Assembly: GCA_043778225.1 (NCBI GenBank)
Contig: JAYWGM010000079.1
Location: 14,094 to 78,093 of the forward strand
Origin: Deinococcales bacterium
GTDB lineage: Bacteria > Deinococcota > Deinococci > Deinococcales > JAAFIG01
Length of the DNA stretch: 64,000 nt
Direction: 5' to 3'
The notes beneath the pieces are model-generated. The model did not search any database. It was given only the letters and a program-made list of their open reading frames with translations, and had not been told where the DNA came from. Shown here in pieces: positions 4,055-61,455 of the stretch. Position 1 is the stretch's first letter, and every line of letters starts with the position of its first letter. A program made the translations under genes and the position numbers.

Positions 4055-4131
4055 TGGTGCGCCCGATCCGAATCGAACGGATGACCTAAGCGTTAGGAGT
4101 GCTTTGCTCTATCCGACTGAGCTACGAGCGC
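4055..4131 (-). tRNA. tRNA-Arg(CCT), copy 1
   Basis: Cloverleaf: acceptor GCGCTCG/CGGGCGC, anticodon loop CTCCTAA, TTCGATT T-loop, encoded CCA. Confidence 0.92.
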
Positions 4132-4359: not shown

Positions 4360-4436
4360 TGGTGCGCCGAGAGGGAATCGAACCCACGACCTAAGCCTTA
4401 GGAGTGCCTCGCTCTATCCTTCTGAGCTATCGGCGC
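4360..4436 (-). tRNA. tRNA-Arg(CCT), copy 2
   Basis: Cloverleaf: acceptor GCGCCGA/TCGGCGC, anticodon loop CTCCTAA, TTCGATT T-loop, encoded CCA. Confidence 0.92.
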
Positions 4437-5274: not shown

Positions 5275-7302
5275 ATGGATGAGCGCTGGCGGGTTTTTGT
5301 TGCGCCTCGGATGGCGGCTGACGAACAGGTTGTGTCGTACTGGGCGGCTTACTCGAGGTCATTTTGGATAACTTTGTTCGAGGCGTTGTGGCTGGCTTTG
5401 TTTTTTCGTGGAGTGGCAGTGGTGCTGACTCGAGTTGGGGTGGTTGCACCTTGGGCAGAATTGTGGGCGCTTTTGAGCGAACACGTCTTGTGGTTTTGGG
5501 CAGCGCTGCGCTTAACGCGGCTGACCGAAGCGACTTGGTGGTGGCGGGTGTTGCGGGTAGCCATGGTTGGGGTTTTATTGGGTTTGGGTTTTGCGATTGC
5601 CAATGTTATTTTGGTTAGTTTTTTAGCCCCAACCCGTACTTTTTTTGCACTGCAAGCCATCATTGCTCCAGAGCCGGCTCGAGTTTCGTTTGAAGCAATG
5701 ATGTTGACAACTGTATTGCGCTTTGGTTTTGTTTACGCCATCCGCGAGGTCTGGCTCGAGGGGCGGCGCAATTTGCGTTGGCGCTTAACCGCTTTGGCGC
5801 TGTTTGGTGGGGTTTTTGCTGCCAGTGTAGTGGCAATTTTACCGGGTGTGATTACGCTTTTGCGCGACCCAAGCGCCCGTCTAACCTCCGAGGCGCTGCG
5901 TGATGCGACCAATCTCGCCAAGGCGTTCCAAGGCGCACTGAGCAGTGGTTCTAACCAAGACCAACTCAAACGTTTATTTAACTTTTTAGAAGGTGGTTTT
6001 GATTCACGGCGCTCGAGTTTACTCGAGGATGCCGAAAGACCACAGGATTCACGGCGCATTGCTTTACTGATTGCTGGCACTGGCGAAGTTTTAGAGTCCA
6101 ACCGAGTTGACCGTTTTTCTCAAGGCGATACTTTCCAGACCCCAGAACTTGCACCGTGGGCAGAAATTTTGATCACGGCTTCTGGCGGGCGTTGTCGGGC
6201 TTTGGTGGTTGGTTTAGAAGTGATTGCCGGTTGCCCTGCCATTTCCCAAGACCCAAATGTGCCTAGTGTGGTGCTTGGGGTGGTACAGAGTACCCAAAAC
6301 TCGAGTCCTCCGGGCGATATTGCGGCGCAGATTAGTTCAGATTTTAGCAATGCCCTCGATACCCTTTCGCAGTCTTTTTTGGCATTTTTTCTGGGGTTGG
6401 GCTTTCTTGGCTATGCGGTCAGTTTGCGATTAACCCGTCCGCTCGAGCAGCTTTTACAGGGTGTCCAAGCCCTTGAGGGCGGGCAACTCGAGGCTCGGGT
6501 TCATATTGATGGCGAGGACGAAGTAGCACGGTTATCGCAGACTTTTAATAAAATGGCAACGCGGCTTGAGGGCAATGTCTTGGCGCTGCGCCGCGAAAAA
6601 CAAAATGTCGAGAATTTGCTCGAAGCCAAAAAAGGTTTAACCGCCAATGCTTCGCACGAGCTTCGCACCCCGATTGCAGTGCTGCGGGCGCGGCTTGAGA
6701 GCGCCGAATTGCGCGGCGAAAGCATTAAACCACAGACGCTTCTGAACGAAGTCCAACGCTTAGAGCGGTTGGTTGAGGATTTGTTTGCACTGGCTCGAGC
6801 CGACCTCGAGCAAATCGAATTTCAGCAACAAGCGGTTTTACTGTCCGAATTGGTCGGGCAACTCTTAGAAAGTTTTACACCATTAGCCAAAGCCAGCAAC
6901 CTGATTTTACTCAACGATGTCCCAGAGCGAATTATCCCAGTTCGAGCCGACCGCGAACGGCTTGAGCAGGTCTTACGGAACTTGGTCATAAACGCCATTC
7001 GTTATACCCCAGAAGGTGGCATTGTGCGAATTGCAGCTCGAGCCAGAGTAGATTTTGTTGAATTGACAGTCGAGGATACTGGCATGGGCATCGAGACCGA
7101 AGATTTAAGCCGCATTTTCGAGCCGTTCTATCGTTCTGACCCAGCCCGCGCTCGAGCCACAGGCGGGGCGGGGCTAGGTTTAGCCGTAGTACGCGAACTG
7201 ATGCAGCGCATGGACGGCACAGTTCGGGCGACCAGCACCCTTGGGCAAGGCAGTACCTTTACGCTCGAGCTACCTGTGGCTCGAGAACAGCTTGAGCTTT
7301 AG
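5275..7302 (+). CDS. Multi-TM HAMP-domain sensor histidine kinase
   Basis: HAMP (LTRPL..GEDEVARL), H-box SHELRTP, N-box NLVINAIRY, G-boxes DTGMG and GAGLGL. Confidence 0.93.
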   Translation: MDERWRVFVAPRMAADEQVVSYWAAYSRSFWITLFEALWLALFFRGVAVVLTRVGVVAPWAELWALLSEHVLWFWAALRLTRLTEATWWWRVLRVAMVGVLLGLGFAIANVILVSFLAPTRTFFALQAIIAPEPARVSFEAMMLTTVLRFGFVYAIREVWLEGRRNLRWRLTALALFGGVFAASVVAILPGVITLLRDPSARLTSEALRDATNLAKAFQGALSSGSNQDQLKRLFNFLEGGFDSRRSSLLEDAERPQDSRRIALLIAGTGEVLESNRVDRFSQGDTFQTPELAPWAEILITASGGRCRALVVGLEVIAGCPAISQDPNVPSVVLGVVQSTQNSSPPGDIAAQISSDFSNALDTLSQSFLAFFLGLGFLGYAVSLRLTRPLEQLLQGVQALEGGQLEARVHIDGEDEVARLSQTFNKMATRLEGNVLALRREKQNVENLLEAKKGLTANASHELRTPIAVLRARLESAELRGESIKPQTLLNEVQRLERLVEDLFALARADLEQIEFQQQAVLLSELVGQLLESFTPLAKASNLILLNDVPERIIPVRADRERLEQVLRNLVINAIRYTPEGGIVRIAARARVDFVELTVEDTGMGIETEDLSRIFEPFYRSDPARARATGGAGLGLAVVRELMQRMDGTVRATSTLGQGSTFTLELPVAREQLEL

Positions 7303-17104: not shown

Positions 17105-19720
17105 ATGAGTCTCGAGATACGGGCAGCTTCGGCTGGGACAGGAAAAACCACCAGTTTAGTGCTGCTGTACTTAGAAGCCCTAAAAACCACTCCAGCACGA
17201 CGTATTGCCGCCGTAACCTTCACGCGGGCTTCGGCTCGAGATTTACGGACACGTTTACGGGCGGGCTTATTGGAGTTGCTGCAAACGGGGCGCTACTTGG
17301 ATGTGGTGCTGCACACCCGTGAACCTTTTGAACGGGCGCTAAAAGAACTGGACTCGAGTGCAATATCAACCATCCACGGATTTTTTCGGGTTTTGCTGCG
17401 CTTAAATGCCCCAAGCCTTGGTTTAGACCCTGAGTTTACCAACCTCGATGAATCCCAAGCCAAAGAAATCTACCGAGCGGCGTGCAGCAGTTTATTGGCT
17501 CGAGCCGCCCTGCTTGGCGAAACGGGTACGGCTTTACTCGCCACGTATGGCTGGGAAGAAGCCCTATCTGCCCTCGAGACACTTTTTGAAAAACGGGTTT
17601 ACGCACCATTTTTTGGCGACGACCAAAATTTATTAGAAACCTACAACGCCGCCAACGCGCTCTACCAAGCTCGACTGGCAAACAGCAGTTTATCGGCAAC
17701 CGATATTGAACTTAAAACCCTTGAATTGCTCGAGCAGCCAGCTTGCGTTGCCCGAATCCAAAGCCGTTTTCAGATTTTATTGGTGGATGAGTTTCAGGAT
17801 GTCAATCCACTGCAAGCCAAAATTTTTACCCGCCTGAACTTGCAGCGCACGATTTTTGTCGGAGATGCCAAACAGAGCATCTATGCCTTTCGGGATGCCG
17901 ATGTGACGGCGTTTCTCGAGATGTACCAACAAGCCAAGTCACTTGCGCCTTTGACCACAACTTACCGGCATGGAAAAGCCTTATCTGAGTTTTACTCGAG
18001 CTTGTCCGAAAAATTATTTCCAGAATTCTCGGAGCGAGGCTTACCCGCCACCGTCTCGAGTGGGCGCACAAATGCCACCTCGAGTGCCGAAATGCACCTG
18101 ATTGAAGCCAGCCATTTAGAAAGCGGACGCAGCACCGAAGCGCGAATTATCGCCAAAAGGCTTTGGGAACTGCACCAAGCTGGCTATGCGTGGCGCGAGA
18201 TGGCAATTCTGTTGCGAACCAGAACCTCTTTAACCAACCTTGAACCCAGTCTGCGCCATGCTCAAATACCGTTTTTGGTCGGCAGTGGACAGCGCTATTA
18301 CGACCGCCGAGAAATCCGCGATGCGATTCAGCTGTTACGCGCTAAGCTCCAGCCAGAAGCGCCCGAAGTGTTGGCAGCCTTGGCACGGCTACCGAGCATC
18401 AATTTACCACTCGAGAAAATAGAAAACCTCTTGACAAACACAAAACGCGCCTTACAAGACCCCGACTTCGCGCCACTTGTGGCACTGCTTGAGGTGATTT
18501 ATGGCGCAAGTGATGCCCTTGGCTTGCTCGAGGCGGCTTGGATGCACCTTGGCACAAACTTGACCCGCGAAGCCCAAAGTTACGCCAATTTGGATGGTTT
18601 ACTCTATCAATTGGCAGCCAGAGGCGCACGCGACCCACGGGCTGCGCTGACGTTTCTCGAGCAAGCCCAGTTGGGCGAAGCCGAAGGCGACGAACCACTC
18701 GAGGGACAAGACGCAGTGCGAATTTTAACGATTCATGCTTCCAAAGGACTTGAGTTTCCAGTCTGTGTGGTCTACGACCTAGCGCGAGGCGAGCGCAACA
18801 CTGCCGAAGCCTTGGCAGTCCACCCAAACGGCGAAGTGGCTTGGCGCGGCACAGCCAGCTACATCAGCACCCAGAAGCACTGGAACGCCCGCCGCGATGG
18901 CGAAGCCAATCGTTTGTTGTACGTTGCCCTGACTCGAGCCAAAGATGTTTTAATCCTGACTGGCTCGAGTACCGGCACTGCCCGAGGCTGGTTGGCGAAC
19001 TTTGAAAAAATTGGCTCGTTGCCACACTTAGAGGTTGTGACCCATGCCGAAGACCAAAGTCTACCGCTTGAGATAACAACCAATCCGCAGTCTTTTCTGA
19101 CTTTAATGCCCAATTTAGAGCTTGCTAAAGCCAGTTTTAAGCGCCACACCCCAAGGGTTCGTGCGCCGACTCGCTCGCCAGAAGCCCACGAAACAGACAC
19201 CAGCCCAGACGAACTGCGACTGGATTTACACAGCGAATCCATCCCCGAAGCCGACCGTGTGATAGGCACACTGGCACACTATGCGATTGCCGAAAATTTC
19301 TCGAGCCAGAACATGGCACAACGCCAGATTCTAAGCGCCCAATATGTCCTGCACCCCTATAGCCCACTCGAGTGCCAAACCATGATTGAACGGGCTTGGT
19401 GGTATTTAACCCAATATGAAAAACTGTATCCAGACCGCAGTCAGCGCCTTGTGGATTATGCCGAACTGCCCTTTGCCTACCAAGACGGCAAAACCACATG
19501 GCAAGGCATCATAGACCGCCTCTACCAAGAAGAAAACGGCACTTGGATACTCGAGGATTACAAAACCGACAGCCTTCCCTTGCCAGAAATCCCACAGCGT
19601 GCCAGAGCTTACGAGCGCCAGCTTGGCATTTACCGCGAAGCCGTAAAAAGCGCCAGAAAACTCGAGCCAGAAGTTCGCCTGACGTTTTTGCACCACGGGA
19701 TTGTTTATAAACTAGGGTAA
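17105..19720 (+). CDS. UvrD-family helicase with C-terminal PD-(D/E)XK nuclease (AddA-like)
   Basis: ASAGTGKT, DEFQD, VGDAKQSIYAFR, TIHASKGLEF, LYVALTRA, GIIDRL..EDYKT; start placed at ATG 17105. Confidence 0.9.
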   Translation: MSLEIRAASAGTGKTTSLVLLYLEALKTTPARRIAAVTFTRASARDLRTRLRAGLLELLQTGRYLDVVLHTREPFERALKELDSSAISTIHGFFRVLLRLNAPSLGLDPEFTNLDESQAKEIYRAACSSLLARAALLGETGTALLATYGWEEALSALETLFEKRVYAPFFGDDQNLLETYNAANALYQARLANSSLSATDIELKTLELLEQPACVARIQSRFQILLVDEFQDVNPLQAKIFTRLNLQRTIFVGDAKQSIYAFRDADVTAFLEMYQQAKSLAPLTTTYRHGKALSEFYSSLSEKLFPEFSERGLPATVSSGRTNATSSAEMHLIEASHLESGRSTEARIIAKRLWELHQAGYAWREMAILLRTRTSLTNLEPSLRHAQIPFLVGSGQRYYDRREIRDAIQLLRAKLQPEAPEVLAALARLPSINLPLEKIENLLTNTKRALQDPDFAPLVALLEVIYGASDALGLLEAAWMHLGTNLTREAQSYANLDGLLYQLAARGARDPRAALTFLEQAQLGEAEGDEPLEGQDAVRILTIHASKGLEFPVCVVYDLARGERNTAEALAVHPNGEVAWRGTASYISTQKHWNARRDGEANRLLYVALTRAKDVLILTGSSTGTARGWLANFEKIGSLPHLEVVTHAEDQSLPLEITTNPQSFLTLMPNLELAKASFKRHTPRVRAPTRSPEAHETDTSPDELRLDLHSESIPEADRVIGTLAHYAIAENFSSQNMAQRQILSAQYVLHPYSPLECQTMIERAWWYLTQYEKLYPDRSQRLVDYAELPFAYQDGKTTWQGIIDRLYQEENGTWILEDYKTDSLPLPEIPQRARAYERQLGIYREAVKSARKLEPEVRLTFLHHGIVYKLG

Positions 19721-19836
19721 AAAGGAAAAAAGGAAAAAGCGACCCAGCCCGCAGGGTGCGTGTTTAGGGTCAAGAAAGGTTAAGAGTTTAGACGGGTTTA
19801 CTTTTAACCTTTTAACCTTTTGACCTTTTAACCTTT
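19716..19836. repeat. (GTNAAAAG)n inverted array interrupted by a 38-bp micro-element
   Basis: Purine arm 19716-19785; pyrimidine arm cttttaac/cttttgac 19801-19836. Confidence 0.8.
19739..19776 (+). mobile_element. 38-bp structured micro-element, copy A
   Basis: GCGACCCAGCCCGCAGGGTGCGTGTTTAGGGTCAAGAA; aligns with 58408-58446 (+) and 58329-58366 (-). Confidence 0.65.
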
Positions 19837-24959: not shown

Positions 24960-26390
24960 TCATCTCGAGGCAATAATGCCGATATTAGCAACCAAGTTTG
25001 TGACCAGACTTGGCAGAACACCGAGCAACACAACGCCAATTGCACAGACAATCATCACGGCTCGAGACATACCGCTTGAAAGGTCTGGGAGGGCAAAACC
25101 TTTGGGTTCGGCGAACCACATTAGGGCAACAGGTCGCAGGTAATAGTAGACACTGACTGCACTGGTGAGGGCTGCCAGAATGACCAAACCGTAAAAACCA
25201 GCTTGGGCAGCGCCAGCAAAAATCAGGTACTTGCCCATAAAACCAGCCAAGGGCGGAATGCCAGCCAAGGCAATCAGAAAAAGCGCCAGCATTGAAGCTA
25301 AGAACGGGTTTCTCGAGCCTAGTCCAGCTAAACTGTCCACTTTAATACCATCATCGGATGGAGAGATGCTGTTTAAGACTGCAAATGCACCCGCATTCAT
25401 CAGGGCATAGGCTGCCATGTAAAAAAGTGCCGCAGGAAATGCCTGTGCTGGACTCGAGAGAACCGCCAAACCAATGTAGCCCGCATGGGCAATACTCGAG
25501 TACGCCAGCATTCGCTTAAAATTGGTTTGACGCAGTGCAGCTAAATTACCAATCATTAGGGTTAGCGCAATTAAGAACTGGGCTGGCGTTTGCCAACCCG
25601 CCACGCTCGGCAGTGCCTCACCAAAAATTCGGAGCATCCCCGCAAAGGCTGCGGCTTTGACACCAACACTCATGTACTGCGTAACGGCGATGGGCGCACC
25701 TGTGTAGACATCTGGAGTCCACTGGTGAAACGGCGCAAAAGCAACCTTAAAACCAAAGCCAATCAGAATAAAAAGCGCTCCGACCGCCACAATTGGCGTA
25801 TTGGCAGGTGAACTCGAGACAGCGGTACGGATTGCCTCGAGCGCAAAAGTTCCCGTGCCACCAAAAACCAAGGCAATACCAAAAATTAGAATCGCACTGG
25901 CAAAAGAACCCAAGAGAAAATACTTCATGCCAGCTTCTTCGGATTGCTGTCGGGCTTGGAAACTGGTCAGAATATAGACACTAAGGCTCATGACTTCAAA
26001 ACCGATCAGCATCACAATTAAATCCTTGGAATGAACCAACAACATCGTGCCACAAATGGCGTACAACATAATCGCGTAGAACTCGGCGGGAAACGAACCC
26101 GAGCGCACGATTCCGTCGCTGCTCGAGGCAATCGCCGCAATACCAGCCAGAATCAGAATGACACTGAAACCCAAGGCAAAATTATCCGCCAAAAACGCAC
26201 CATTAAAACTCGAGAGACGCTGATTCCACAAGGCAACCGTCCAGCCAAGCGCCACCACAAGCCCCATTGCCGACAGCCCCGCGATGCCACGGCGAGTTGT
26301 ATAAAATGGCAAGACCGTTGCAAAAACAGCCGTGATTAAAACCACAAGAATGGGCATCAAAGACAACACGTTGACATCTGGCGGGGTCAT
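24960..26390 (-). CDS. nuoN: NADH-quinone oxidoreductase subunit N
   Basis: EAGMKYF, FKVAFAPFHQWTPDVYTGAP, KRMLAYSSIAH. Confidence 0.95.
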   Translation of the reverse strand: MTPPDVNVLSLMPILVVLITAVFATVLPFYTTRRGIAGLSAMGLVVALGWTVALWNQRLSSFNGAFLADNFALGFSVILILAGIAAIASSSDGIVRSGSFPAEFYAIMLYAICGTMLLVHSKDLIVMLIGFEVMSLSVYILTSFQARQQSEEAGMKYFLLGSFASAILIFGIALVFGGTGTFALEAIRTAVSSSPANTPIVAVGALFILIGFGFKVAFAPFHQWTPDVYTGAPIAVTQYMSVGVKAAAFAGMLRIFGEALPSVAGWQTPAQFLIALTLMIGNLAALRQTNFKRMLAYSSIAHAGYIGLAVLSSPAQAFPAALFYMAAYALMNAGAFAVLNSISPSDDGIKVDSLAGLGSRNPFLASMLALFLIALAGIPPLAGFMGKYLIFAGAAQAGFYGLVILAALTSAVSVYYYLRPVALMWFAEPKGFALPDLSSGMSRAVMIVCAIGVVLLGVLPSLVTNLVANIGIIASR

Positions 26391-57042: not shown

Positions 57043-58233
57043 CTAAAAAGTGATGCGACGAATCAGCAATTGATTTTTTTGGCAATAACCAAGCAAGAGT
57101 TTTTTGTCGGTGGTAAAAGCAAAATCCTCGAGTTTGGCTGGGATTGCCGCCAACCAACGCGGTTTATTGTTTGGTGTGTGAAGCATTACTTTTTGTTCAT
57201 CTAAAAAAATAACCTCGCCTGTTGGATAGGTCTTGGCATAAAAATCCCCTAACTCGAGCGAGTCAAGACCCTGAGAATCCATACGCACACCTCGCTCGTT
57301 AAACCAATCTACATACCAAGTGAGCTTATCGCCTTGTGGTGAATTATCTGTACCAGAAACAAAAACTAGACCACCTTTTGGCATGATTTGCAAAGAACGA
57401 TAATAACCAATGTCATTTGGGGCGGAGTCAATATCCACCCCATCCTGACTAAAACTTGGCTCGAGAAAACCAGCATTGCTCAATTTAGCCACAAATAAAC
57501 GTAGACCTCTAAATTGAATTCCACCTGTCAGGGCAAAATTCCCCGCCACATCCATCGCCAAACTGTAGGCGGTCACGGCTGGCGTTCCAGAACCAAAGGC
57601 GCTCAGAAGCTCGAGAATTTTTGGACTGATAACGCTAAATTCAGCGTAGCCTTGGGTTGCAAAACTGGTATCAAGGTCTAACTCACCTCGATTTGAAAGG
57701 GTGTAGCGCACAAAAACAACCCTTTGATTGGCTTCGTCATCAAATGCCAACAATAAACGCTGACCAGACCAAACCCAAGCATACGCCACGACTTCATCAA
57801 ACTTTGGCAAATCCAAATTAACCCGAAATTTTACTTTTCCAGCCGCCGAAATCAACACCAAACGCGTCGAAACAAAAGCATCCTCGGCAAAACCTTGAAG
57901 GTCAGACCCAACAATCAAGACATCCGAATTATTTTGTTGAATCACTTGAGTATCCTGCACATCCCAATCTGGAAGGCGCAACACCGCCTGATTCGCAAAA
58001 CTGGTGTCCCATTTGCCTGCTCGAGTCAGTTTTAAGAGCGTTAGGATTTTTTGAGATTGTTTGACCAACAATACACTTCGGTCTGGGAAATCTAGCATGG
58101 TCAGCAAGCCACAAATCCCAGCTTGGGTCGTACCTTGATTGCCAAAACTCGAGTCGGGCTTGCCAATCCGAGACTGCGAAAAAGCTGTCACCGAAAAAAC
58201 CAGCAAAGCCAATATCAATATTACTCGAGTCAT
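57043..58233 (-). CDS. Secreted beta-propeller-like protein with delta-60-like repeats
   Basis: Signal peptide; repeated G..D.SF...G motifs. Confidence 0.7.
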   Translation of the reverse strand: MTRVILILALLVFSVTAFSQSRIGKPDSSFGNQGTTQAGICGLLTMLDFPDRSVLLVKQSQKILTLLKLTRAGKWDTSFANQAVLRLPDWDVQDTQVIQQNNSDVLIVGSDLQGFAEDAFVSTRLVLISAAGKVKFRVNLDLPKFDEVVAYAWVWSGQRLLLAFDDEANQRVVFVRYTLSNRGELDLDTSFATQGYAEFSVISPKILELLSAFGSGTPAVTAYSLAMDVAGNFALTGGIQFRGLRLFVAKLSNAGFLEPSFSQDGVDIDSAPNDIGYYRSLQIMPKGGLVFVSGTDNSPQGDKLTWYVDWFNERGVRMDSQGLDSLELGDFYAKTYPTGEVIFLDEQKVMLHTPNNKPRWLAAIPAKLEDFAFTTDKKLLLGYCQKNQLLIRRITF

Positions 58234-58328
58234 GGCAGCAGCATAGCGCAAAAGGCAAAAGCCATGTTTACTTTAGAGCCTCCAAAAGAATGCCATTTCA
58301 TCATTAGTAACAGGACAGACACAGGGGT

Positions 58329-58366
58329 GTCTTGACCATAAGCGCGCACCTTACGGGCATAGTCGC
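58329..58366 (-). mobile_element. 38-bp structured micro-element, copy C
   Basis: GCGACTATGCCCGTAAGGTGCGCGCTTATGGTCAAGAC on the minus strand. Confidence 0.65.
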
Positions 58367-58407
58367 CTGTCCCTACAATCTTGGCATAAAAATGCTTGAG
58401 GTAGGGG

Positions 58408-58446
58408 GCGACCCAAGCCCGTTAGGTGCATCTTTAGGGTCAAGAA
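58408..58446 (+). mobile_element. 39-bp structured micro-element, copy B
   Basis: GCGACCCAAGCCCGTTAGGTGCATCTTTAGGGTCAAGAA. Confidence 0.65.
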
Positions 58447-58529
58447 CGAACCCCCGTGTTCGCCCTGTTTTTTCATTCACGCGTTTGACGAAAATTTCTA
58501 ACAATTTCGGAACTTTCGGAGGCTCTATG

Positions 58530-58570
58530 TTTACTTTCGCCTTTTGACCCTTTCACCTTTTTACCTTTTT
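58530..58570. repeat. Half (pyrimidine arm) of the GTNAAAAG array
   Basis: ctttcgc cttttgac cctttcac ctttttac cttttt. Confidence 0.7.
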
Positions 58571-59745
58571 TAATTCAGCAATTCAAAAATCCCAGCCGCG
58601 CCCTGCCCACCACCAACGCACATCGTCACCATGCCATACCGCCCACCACGCCGACGAAGTTCGTTGATTAAAGTTGTGGTCAGTTTTGCACCCGTACAAC
58701 CCAAGGGATGACCCAGCGCAATTGCCCCACCATTAACATTGAGTTTATTCATATCAATCCCGATTTCTCGAGCCACCGCCAAGGCTTGGGCGGCAAATGC
58801 CTCGTTGAGTTCAAAAAGGTCAATATCCTTTAGCTCGAGACCCGCCAGTTTAAGCGCCTTGGGAATCGCAGCAATTGGACCAATACCCATGATTTCTGGG
58901 GCAACGCCAACACTGGCAAAACTCACAAAACGCGCCAAGGGCTTCAAGCCAAGGTCAGCCGCTCGAGCCGCGCTCATCAGCACCGCTGCCGCCGCACCAT
59001 CGGAGAACGGACTTGAGTTTCCAGCCGTGACGCTGCCGCCCTCTCTGAACGCACCACGCAGCTTACCCAGCCCCTCAAGACTGGTATCGCGGCGCAAAAG
59101 TTCATCGGTGTCAAACATCATTTCGCTCGAGATGGTTTTTGTACCTTTGAGTTTATCCACCCGCACTGGCACAGACACGATTTCATCTTTAAATTTTCCA
59201 GCATCCTGTGCCGCCGCCGCCCGTTGGTGCGACTCGAGGGCAAAGGCATCCATGTCCGCACGGTTCACGCCGTACTTATCCGCTACGTTCTCGGCAGTAT
59301 GACCCATACCGATGTACGCACCCGGTCTCGAGTCCACGAGGGCATTATTGGCGCTAAAAGCAAAACCAGACATTGGCACAAGGCTCATGCTTTCCGCACC
59401 ACCAGCGATTAAACAATCGTTGCTGCCGCTACGGATGGCTTGGGCAGCCATAGCAATAGTCTGCAAACCAGAGGCGCAAAAACGGTTAATCGTCACACCA
59501 GCCACGGAATCGGGCAGACCAGCGCGGAGACTCGAGAGACGCGCAAAGTTTAGCCCTTGCGAACCCTCGGGCATGGCACAACCTAGAAAGACATCCTCGA
59601 CTAAGTTTGGGTCAACGCCCGCCCTCGAGACGGATTCTTTAAGGACGATTGCCGCGAGGTCATCGGCTCGAGTGTTTGACAGTGTGCCTTTTAAGCCACG
59701 ACCAACGGCGGTGCGGACGGCGGAAACGATAACAGCTTCATTCAT
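58570..59745 (-). CDS. fadA: Acetyl-CoA C-acyltransferase (thiolase)
   Basis: NRFCASG, NEAFA, GHPLG, CVGGGQG. Confidence 0.93.
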
Positions 59746-61020: not shown

Positions 61021-61455
61021 TCACCTTACGAAACCAATACCAGCTTGATATTGAATTGGCTGTCCTACTGGAATACCTTTTTCGCCCCAGTCGTACTCTG
61101 GTAAAGCCTCACCCATGTCTGCCTCGAGCCAGCGCTGGGTTTCGGTGTCTAATTCATGGGCTGAAATCAGGGCTTCGTACTCTGCAATTGGTAGCAGTGC
61201 AAAGGTTTTTTTGCCTTGTTCATTGTAAACAAATTGGTGTTGGCTGGTACTCATACTTCCTCCTTTAATCTGCGGCTGCCCTTGCTCGAGCCGAGCCATA
61301 AAACTTTGAATATCTAAATTCTCGAGTTCACCTGTGCTGGTGTTAAATCGTCCTAGCATTTCATTAGCTACATGATCCGAAATTTGTGTGGCATTGCGTG
61401 GCACAAAGTCGAATGCCAGTGTATCGCTGGTTTTGTCGTATGAAACTGTGGTCAT
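61021..61455 (-). CDS. In-frame fusion of a DUF2283-like module and an antitoxin-like module (own SD and ATG at 61254)
   Basis: YDKTSDTLAF N-half; QHQFVYNEQGKKTFALLPIAEYEAL C-half; AAGGAGGAAGTATG inside. Confidence 0.65.
   Translation of the reverse strand: MTTVSYDKTSDTLAFDFVPRNATQISDHVANEMLGRFNTSTGELENLDIQSFMARLEQGQPQIKGGSMSTSQHQFVYNEQGKKTFALLPIAEYEALISAHELDTETQRWLEADMGEALPEYDWGEKGIPVGQPIQYQAGIGFVR

Follow-up and report, generated by a model that had tools for sequence, protein, structure and literature searches.

The window, a 64,000 nt stretch of a 4.03 Mb Deinococcales MAG (107 contigs, 48.7% G+C, completeness 89%), carries three members of a short repeat family that we term E, which consists of a core of 37-38 nt followed by a tail of 1-2 nt. 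Two of these members, copies B and C, are located in the 318 nt spacer between two minus-strand genes, one for a thiolase and the other a 402-aa ORF without a match in Pfam. Three layers of repeats are superimposed at this place: each E copy lies within a REP, and the REP doublet lies within a MITE-like repeat. The remaining member, copy A, is flanked on both sides by 8-mer repeats of the AAAAGG type, as an earlier note on this DNA had described. The repeat features of the window are the following.

19739..19777, plus strand: E copy A, a 37 nt core (19739-19775) with an A tail of 1-2 nt
58274..58527, no strand assigned: MITE-like repeat of about 254 nt, including both E copies, that carries an inverted REP doublet
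58313..58376, minus strand: host REP 1, a GTAG-tagged hairpin split by copy C into 58367-58376 and 58313-58328
58329..58366, minus strand: E copy C, a 37 nt core (58330-58366) with one tail base at 58329
58401..58465, plus strand: host REP 2, a GTAG-tagged hairpin split by copy B into 58401-58407 and 58447-58465
58408..58446, plus strand: E copy B, a 38 nt core (58408-58445) with an A at 58446

The pattern given in the earlier note finds exactly three places in the window (19739-19775 on the plus strand, 58330-58366 on the minus strand and 58408-58445 on the plus strand), with none expected from 100 shuffles. The limits it gave for the copies were off by one base: AAGA closes the core, and one or two more bases are inserted with it (58446 for copy B, 58329 for copy C). 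The MITE-like repeat at 58274..58527 has numerous matches in congeners, of about 215 nt or 134 nt, in which one or both E copies are missing. No Rfam family corresponds to E. Specifically, the window gives two tRNAs only at the gathering threshold, and a search of 58200-58600 returned nothing relevant at an E-value of ≤10.

Read from 5′ to 3′, E is composed of GCG, the first arm of a covarying stem of 6-7 bp, the apical segment GCCCG-NNA-GGTGC, a 6 nt bulge, the return arm of the stem, AAGA and the tail. More than 10 stem versions were observed, among which GACCCA, GACCAT, GACCAC, GATCCT and GATTCC are the commonest arms after GC; one group of copies has a 7 nt arm with two central G/A mismatches. 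The bulge comprises about 6 unpaired bases, the final two of which are mostly TT. Covariation of the outer stem, which had been proposed from the three window copies, holds among 76 distinct copies, where five of the six pairs change on both sides. In the outer helix of 76 distinct 37 nt copies, 96.5% of cells are paired; shuffled versions give 85.6%, and all 500 of them fall short of the observed figure. With the partner slid, at most 45% of cells are paired. The three inner pairs (the CC-GNNR-GG hairpin) are invariant and hence carry no information on structure. The last base of the apical loop is A in at least 90% of E copies (G in copy A), and otherwise identical copies differ most at the two middle bases of the loop. 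The invariance of GCG, GCCCG, GGTGC and CAAGA in our alignments is partly circular, being imposed by the patterns with which copies were collected. What is conserved in the stem is its shape; in the tails and the apical motif it is the sequence. As had been noted, E has no terminal inverted repeats; its inverted parts are the internal stem.

The strict pattern (regex) of the earlier note has 46 matches in the genome to which the window belongs. When up to 3 substitutions are permitted, this genome contains 91 E copies, of which 76 have 37 nt and 15 have 38 nt, together with 132 left halves and 103 right halves. The covariance model that had been suggested for finding further copies was built from 76 distinct E copies taken from other genomes and the window. 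It identifies at least 134 copies in the same genome (E-value ≤0.01), and this number is a lower bound because only 150 of 2470 first-look candidates were scored. Copy A is among these matches (C79:33832-33868, 54.4 bits).

Spread was assessed with a pattern that fixes the apical motif and the 3′ end of E only. This pattern is present in all 18 other genomes of the same family, which represent five genera and are all incomplete MAGs like that of the window, with 1-146 matches each (89 in the window's own genome); it is found in none of 22 genomes from four other families of the order. Across 301 sampled genomes from the phylum, all nine members of the family carry the pattern, as do both genomes of genus g36 from another family (11 and 39 matches). 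The large genus g7 gives a single chance-like match in one of its 100 genomes, and six genomes of family f2 give 1-2 matches each. Since the reversed control pattern yields 7 single matches in the same 301 genomes, single matches elsewhere in the phylum are at the level of chance. The complete E layout is present in G246 (two matches) and G280 (one match), both of genus g14. Among the matches listed from other sequence records, 78 of 80 carry the title ‘MAG: Deinococcales bacterium’ or ‘Deinococcota’; the other two, Synechococcus and an alphaproteobacterial MAG, have single matches, which is about the chance number for this pattern. Viral contigs were considered as carriers and rejected: they contain 16 pattern matches, none with the 5′ part or the stem of E, and we therefore regard these as chance matches in coding DNA. 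E is confined to a clade, and the dominant stem version differs from genus to genus.

A BLAST search for empty sites within the window's own genome revealed an empty paralogue for 66 of 103 E cores. The filled and empty forms make up 49 distinct contexts, and the difference in length is 38 nt in 15 of them and 39 nt in the other 34. Sliding ambiguity, or microhomology, of at least 1 nt is present at 48 of 49 junction contexts, and copies B and C have zero microhomology. Copy B is a 39 nt insertion in the 5′ arm of host REP 2, and copy C is a 38 nt insertion in host REP 1, the other REP of the doublet. Removal of either copy leaves a GTAG-type REP hairpin, in line with the earlier note, and a single paralogue on contig C64 of the same genome has the empty forms of both sites, letter for letter. 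Furthermore, a contig from another metagenome (run X4) skips exactly 58408-58446, the 39 nt of copy B, and the orthologous spacer of G001 has REP 1 without copy C, an exact 38 nt difference. Two other comparisons were set aside. The orthologous locus for copy B in G001 is rearranged and could not serve as a simple empty site, and relatives have other repeats in place of the site of copy A, which makes it not comparable. Contigs from sequencing runs that cover the window locus reveal no within-population polymorphism and break at the borders of E; they contain paralogous or foreign empty REPs, and a nested copy.

Differences between congeners extend to essential genes. The gene for DNA polymerase III alpha, dnaE, contains an in-frame REP doublet that is common to all five congeners compared. 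A 39 nt E is present in the left REP of G000 alone, a different 39 nt E is present in the right REP of G007 alone, and G001, G003 and G006 are empty at both places. The differences between genomes, at copy C and in dnaE, are independent gains, or exact losses, that followed the split of the species. At a locus on contig C48, the entire 8-mer array together with its E is absent from G003 and G005, and G001 has the array without E. The tabulation of filled and empty sites that had been called for thus yields exact 38/39 nt pairs with fixed boundaries, including the empty orthologous site in G001.

These data support the central proposal of the earlier note: E is a non-autonomous element of very small size whose fold is conserved, it is inserted at many unrelated sites in both orientations, and it does not itself encode its mover. 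We consider it very likely that E is a mobile mini-element that is moved in trans. Sequence comparison further suggests that E is probably a family of gene-less mobile DNA hairpins, active now or very recently, in one uncultured Deinococcales family.

Junction statistics were compiled from 38 unique, non-tandem sites with a known empty form. Position -2 is a purine in 32 of the 38 sites, position -1 is A in 28, G in 8, C in 2 and T in none, position +1 is G in 24, and position +2 is G in 26. The entry point of E is purine-purine^G(G), and usually A^GG. The tail that follows AAGA is A at 19 sites, CA at 8, GA at 3, G at 3, C at 2, AA at 2 and CG at one. Its last base is the same as the base preceding E at 34 of 38 sites, comprising 28 of 28 sites with A and 6 of 10 sites with G or C, and all six tails that do not end in A repeat the preceding base. 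Tails of 2 nt equal the preceding 2 nt at 6 of 14 sites. Because the tail repeats the preceding base, the simplest description of E is an element of 37-39 nt with a 1 nt target repeat. The earlier note had seen no target-site duplication, which is correct for copies B and C, whose boundaries cannot slide and which are among the exceptions without the 1 nt repeat, but does not hold for the family as a whole.

At ten of the 38 sites E has entered the loop of another copy, between NNA and GGTGC. The apical loop of E (NNA^GG) is therefore a favoured target, and copies nest up to 3 deep; within a nest, the left and right halves of the outer copy remain matched to each other. The other 28 targets have no likeness to the E loop beyond purine-purine^G. 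Specifically, their mean matches to the loop flanks are 0.9 and 1.6 of 5, compared with 1.2 and 1.9 at control A^G sites. Hairpin loops in general are not a preferred target, as the proportion located in a predicted loop is 16 of 38, compared with 143 of 400 for control A^GG sites.

E also occurs in head-to-tail arrays with a period of 38 or 39, for which one deletion derivative exists. A CRISPR reading of these tandem arrays was rejected, the units being 1-2 nt apart with no spacers. Among 84 E clusters, 18 have multiple copies, and only 5 of those have mixed orientation. E is further found in AAAAGGTT-type 8-mer arrays (such arrays can also expand at a locus that lacks E), in GTAG REPs, which receive it in both relative orientations, and at a number of fixed positions within two MITE-like families (M1 and M2), most members of which are empty.

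Most copies (88 of 109) lie outside crude ORFs, which cover 88.5% of the genome. Several others are in frame within coding regions, as follows.

dnaE: in-frame E between the PHP and polymerase domains
dnaX: four tandem in-frame 39 nt E copies, which encode a 13-residue repeat
metH: in-frame E between two domains
purL-purQ fusion: in-frame E in the linker
nuoC-like and nuoI-like proteins: in-frame E in the C-terminal tails

Copies between co-directional genes have no preferred orientation, with 25 in the direction of transcription and 22 against it. Similarly, orientation is not linked to the local sign of GC skew (Fisher p 0.35-1.0 at three window sizes), although this test is weak because the direction of replication on the contigs is unproven.

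Small gene-less hairpin repeats of 21-27 nt, SDR1-8, were reportedly described by Elhai and co-workers in 2008 from Nostoc punctiforme and its relatives. These hairpins are said to have compensatory changes and to occur in tandem short repeats, in mini-transposons and in their own copies. E resembles them in being tiny and gene-less, in forming a hairpin with compensatory changes (five of six outer pairs), and in its presence in itself, in 8-mer arrays and in the MITE-like families M1 and M2. The differences are that E belongs to Deinococcota rather than Nostocaceae and measures 37-39 nt rather than 21-27 nt, in a comparison by description. Unlike the SDRs, E is a bulged hairpin with a fixed apical motif, has a 1 nt target repeat, and includes in-frame copies in essential genes. 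SDRs are reported only from Nostocaceae (PMC5861425). The likeness to the small Nostoc repeats that the earlier note had drawn therefore stands as a concept, for the hairpin and the nesting; the host is a Deinococcales bacterium and not a cyanobacterium, and the Nostoc repeats are thus an analogy rather than kin.

REPs and REPINs are described as hairpins of 20-40 nt with an unpaired GTAG or CGTC tag (PMC3116915; PMC3733652), and REP sub-families as differing by complementary stem changes (PMC3733652). E likewise is a hairpin with short unpaired tags, sub-families with complementary stems and, as with REPs, hundreds of copies, some in genes. Its tags are GCG(A) on the 5′ side and AAGA on the 3′ side, compared with the GTAG or CGTC of REPs, and it is single, tandem or nested as opposed to the inverted doublets of REPINs. 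In addition, E inserts into the GTAG REPs of its own genome. The pairing of REPs with RAYT genes is not matched, as no RAYT gene flanked by E was found in the 89% complete MAG.

Comparable repeats are also known from other genomes. The GC clusters of yeast mitochondria, such as the 42 nt GC42, are mobile hairpin repeats with AG or ACT at their flanks (Wu and Hao 2015, PMC4478555, where Weiller et al. 1989 is cited). They are single or tandem and present or absent between strains, and the suspected movers are intron-encoded endonucleases or reverse transcriptases (PMC4478555). E shares with them a length of about 40 nt, a hairpin, a very short direct repeat, single or tandem arrangement and presence/absence differences; the GC clusters, in contrast, belong to the organelle genome of a eukaryote and are unrelated in sequence. 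Within the phylum, 295 copies of ‘mosaic’ small noncoding repeats are reported from Deinococcus radiodurans (PMC1978522). Layered small repeats are thus known in Deinococcota, whereas the E pattern has only the one chance-like match among 100 g7 genomes. Our literature search found no description of E, which does not prove that one is absent.

The earlier note had suggested that HUH/RAYT transposases, IS110-type recombinases or reverse transcriptases might co-occur with E, but no enzyme family that we tested tracks E among these incomplete assemblies. The Y1 HUH transposase (PF01797) is present in 15 of 18 other genomes of the family and also in 3 of 22 genomes of E-free families, and it was not found in G010, which has 82 E copies and is 91% complete. 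The sole Y1 gene (PF01797) of the window's own genome is part of an ordinary IS605 (tnpA and tnpB), and no E copy lies within 1.5 kb of the seven Y1 loci examined, this one and six others. Y2/IS91 transposases were found in none of 41 genomes, a result that is uninformative because the control was silent everywhere. The window's own genome encodes both the IS110 domain DEDD_Tnp_IS110 and a reverse transcriptase; of the 18 other genomes in the family, the former was identified in 8 and the latter in 4. A REPtron-like gene situated between inverted E copies was also considered and rejected, as all eight ORFs so enclosed are ordinary genes (an oxidoreductase, TetR regulators, a lipocalin-domain protein, a zinc-binding dehydrogenase, a DUF4832 protein, a metallo-beta-lactamase-fold protein and a histidine kinase).

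The IS110 family has a direct relationship with E. An IS110-family element of 1163 bp that encodes an IS110-type recombinase (contig C26, L187:148-1310) interrupts the innermost E of a triple nest, exactly between the loop NNA and GGTGC. This is the same phosphodiester at which nested E copies are inserted. In 8 of 10 loci fetched from the family, the same IS110 element adjoins the left half of an E (left-end 14-mer, ≤2 mismatches), and these loci represent G000, G003 and G005 of genus g1, G012 of g2, and G014, G015, G016 and G018 of g5. The right end adjoins GGTGC in all six loci where that end was covered, and none of three loci from family f2 has IS110 beside E. At the junctions, the NA of the target is kept at the left and AA is found at the right. 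The IS110 element and E follow the same junction logic, and both lack terminal inverted repeats, begin with GC and end with A. The earlier note had allowed that E might match the end of a known IS. This was not observed; rather, E is the dedicated landing site of an IS110-family element.

Upstream of the recombinase gene, a 185 nt leader has a fold with an internal loop. On one side of this loop is a 6-mer identical to the left flank of the target, and on the other side is a 7-mer complementary to the core and right flank; a second region of the leader matches the end of the IS110 element itself. We take this layout to be that of bridge RNAs. The leader has no match in Rfam, and in G003 and G018 it holds a 39 nt E copy of its own. 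IS110-family elements with a bridge RNA were reportedly characterized by Durrant and co-workers in 2024, and IS elements that target REPs are said to have been described by Tobes and Pareja in 2006. The likeness to REP-targeting IS110/IS1111 elements is that the IS110 element here lands in a multi-copy hairpin and has guide-like matching segments. However, this parallel concerns what lands in E, with E as the target.

How E itself moves is best approached from its fold. Since many stems exist in one genome and all of them pair, E is probably read as a folded single strand and not as a duplex word. The fixed single-stranded tails on either side of a stem that is kept by its shape point in the same direction. 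The ends of IS200/IS605 elements and REPs are read as folded strands by HUH Y1 enzymes, and for this reason an HUH-like mechanism is favoured. E would be mobilized in trans by cut-or-copy-and-paste of single-stranded DNA. The enzyme would be a structure-specific nuclease or transposase, either of the HUH (IS200/RAYT-like) kind or of one not yet described, that cleaves at A^G on both sides of the E hairpin and at the target. Like E, IS200/IS605 elements and their miniature PATEs lack terminal inverted repeats and any real target duplication, and they rely on recognition of folded hairpins with conserved flanking single-stranded bases. They also carry a hairpin at each end, are inserted 3′ of a fixed word of 4-5 nt, and exhibit strong strand bias. 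Compared with a PATE, E has one hairpin, its left flank is only purine-purine and its right flank is only G(G); as regards strand bias, the orientation of E has no link to the sign of GC skew on contigs whose replication direction is unproven. The fit to known HUH elements is thus poor, because E lacks a fixed 4-5 nt adjoining target and has one hairpin instead of two. We hold the HUH-like single-strand mechanism only tentatively, as a possibility that falls short of an even chance.

The shared insertion point raises the alternative that an IS110-family (bridge-RNA) recombinase moves E as a miniature passenger, with a core of 1-2 nt common to the end-to-start junction and the target. Consistent with this alternative are the position of the IS110 element in the E loop at the phosphodiester used by nested copies, the common junction logic, the absence of terminal inverted repeats and the GC start and A end of both elements, the resemblance of the tandem E-tail-E junction to a donor junction, and the presence of DEDD_Tnp_IS110 in the window's own genome and in eight relatives. 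However, a double-stranded circle of 38 bp is physically implausible, and RNA-guided recognition of duplex DNA needs no stem covariation. Guide-based choice is also unsupported, as the targets outside E are no more like the flanks of the E loop than control sites are. Moreover, the left ends of E and the IS110 element agree at only about 5 of 9 positions and the right ends hardly at all, and the search for IS110 was negative in 10 of 18 family genomes, incomplete MAGs that include G008 with its 146 E copies. On balance, movement of E by this recombinase seems unlikely. A broader two-layer arrangement, in which E is moved either by an IS110 recombinase with a mode or guide not yet seen or by an undescribed class of hairpin-specific enzymes while the IS homes into E landing pads, strikes us as similarly doubtful.

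Two further explanations were weighed. Replisome or repair template switching at microhomologies, or gene conversion among repeats, could spread E with no dedicated enzyme if the hairpin served as a pause site that sets the boundaries. The microhomology found at nearly every junction context, the tandem arrays and their deletion derivative, the variable tail, and the expansion of 8-mer arrays at the same loci without E all fit such a process. But the boundaries do not shift by a single base among dozens of unrelated sites, including ones that have no homology (as with copies B and C), and the tails and apical motif are conserved while the stem drifts, which is what sequence-specific recognition predicts; we judge this explanation to be improbable. 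It is more improbable still, to the point that we give it very little credence, that E was multiplied because it is useful, as a cis-acting site under selection such as a protein-binding hairpin, a terminator or a small RNA module. Conservation of the motif in five genera and strong enrichment between genes would be expected of such a site, and some copies are located inside a MITE-like repeat between a promoter-like stretch and a ribosome-binding-like AGGAG. Against this stand the near-equal orientations relative to transcription (25 same, 22 opposite), the presence of E in protein-coding linkers, in other repeats and in its own copies, the positions that differ between congeners, and the lack of a matching Rfam family. 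The preferred reading accordingly remains a hairpin that is moved in trans, with an HUH-like enzyme as the tentative candidate.

E is among the smallest mobile DNA elements seen, a hairpin of 38 letters at over a hundred places in a genome. Its 13-codon insertions are tolerated in the linkers of core replication and metabolic enzymes. The IS110-family element that lands in E offers a natural case in which bridge-RNA-like guides are set on a multi-copy mini-element, and if the IS110 recombinase moved E as well, E would be the first miniature passenger of the bridge-RNA family. How elements of a few dozen bases move has been a standing question since the SDRs and the mitochondrial GC clusters. 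For this question E constitutes an unusually clean data set, with boundaries fixed to the base, a simple junction rule, stem variants that pair, self-nesting, and differences between congeners even in dnaE. The chief limitation is that its hosts are all uncultured. The restriction of E to one clade makes it possible to look for the mover by phylogenetic profiling.

The apical loop of element E, the mobile hairpin family that has three copies in the window, is itself the insertion site of an IS110-family element in eight of the ten loci fetched for that element from the E-carrying family of Deinococcales; these eight represent three genera. The leader of this IS110-family element contains segments matching the target flanks and the element's own end, and in these two respects it resembles a bridge RNA. 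A search of Rfam returned no match for the leader. The sole Y1 transposase match in the assembly of the window's own genome (G000) is the tnpA of an ordinary IS605-type element. In the window, only two tRNA genes are matched by Rfam at the gathering threshold.

Locus L187:148-1310, G000 contig C26: IS110-family element, 1163 bp (further examples in L190-L196)
G000 contig C28:82574-85927 (locus L114): IS605-type element encoding tnpA (163 aa) and a tnpB-like ORF
Window 4058-4131 and 4363-4436: two minus-strand tRNA genes (Rfam)

The G000 assembly is broken by two MITE-like families, one of about 135 bp with inverted ends beginning ATACC and the other with ends beginning TAAGTA. Each family offers several fixed entry sites for E, and most copies of either family are empty.

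Many G000 contig ends, e.g. C12:1-170, C6:1-120 and C105:1-200: the two MITE-like families

Repeats also lie within replication genes of G000. The dnaE doublet of GTAG-tagged hairpin repeats (REPs) is in frame, with the PHP domain on one side and the polymerase domain on the other, and is kept in all five congeners compared. The E array of dnaX, read on the opposite strand, yields a 13-residue protein repeat; its region gave no alignment in congeners G001, G003 and G007. Elsewhere in G000, within a tandem array on contig C1, a shortened E of 25 nt (~26236-26260) has lost the apical part by deletion.

C15 ~5300-5560 (locus L147; orthologues L154-L157): inverted GTAG REP doublet in dnaE
C51 ~61141-61305 (locus L148/L201): E array in dnaX, with four copies of 39 nt in tandem

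Where 8-mers of the AAAAGG type form an array, the inverted version of that array often comes next.

Window 19713-19738 and 19776-19835: AAAAGG-type 8-mer arrays
C48 ~78200-78440 (locus L206:2700-2940): AAAAGG-type 8-mer array

At the C48 locus, compared among congeners, G000 has a long array and G001 a short one devoid of E, and no array is present in G003 and G005. Therefore, these arrays expand independently of E.
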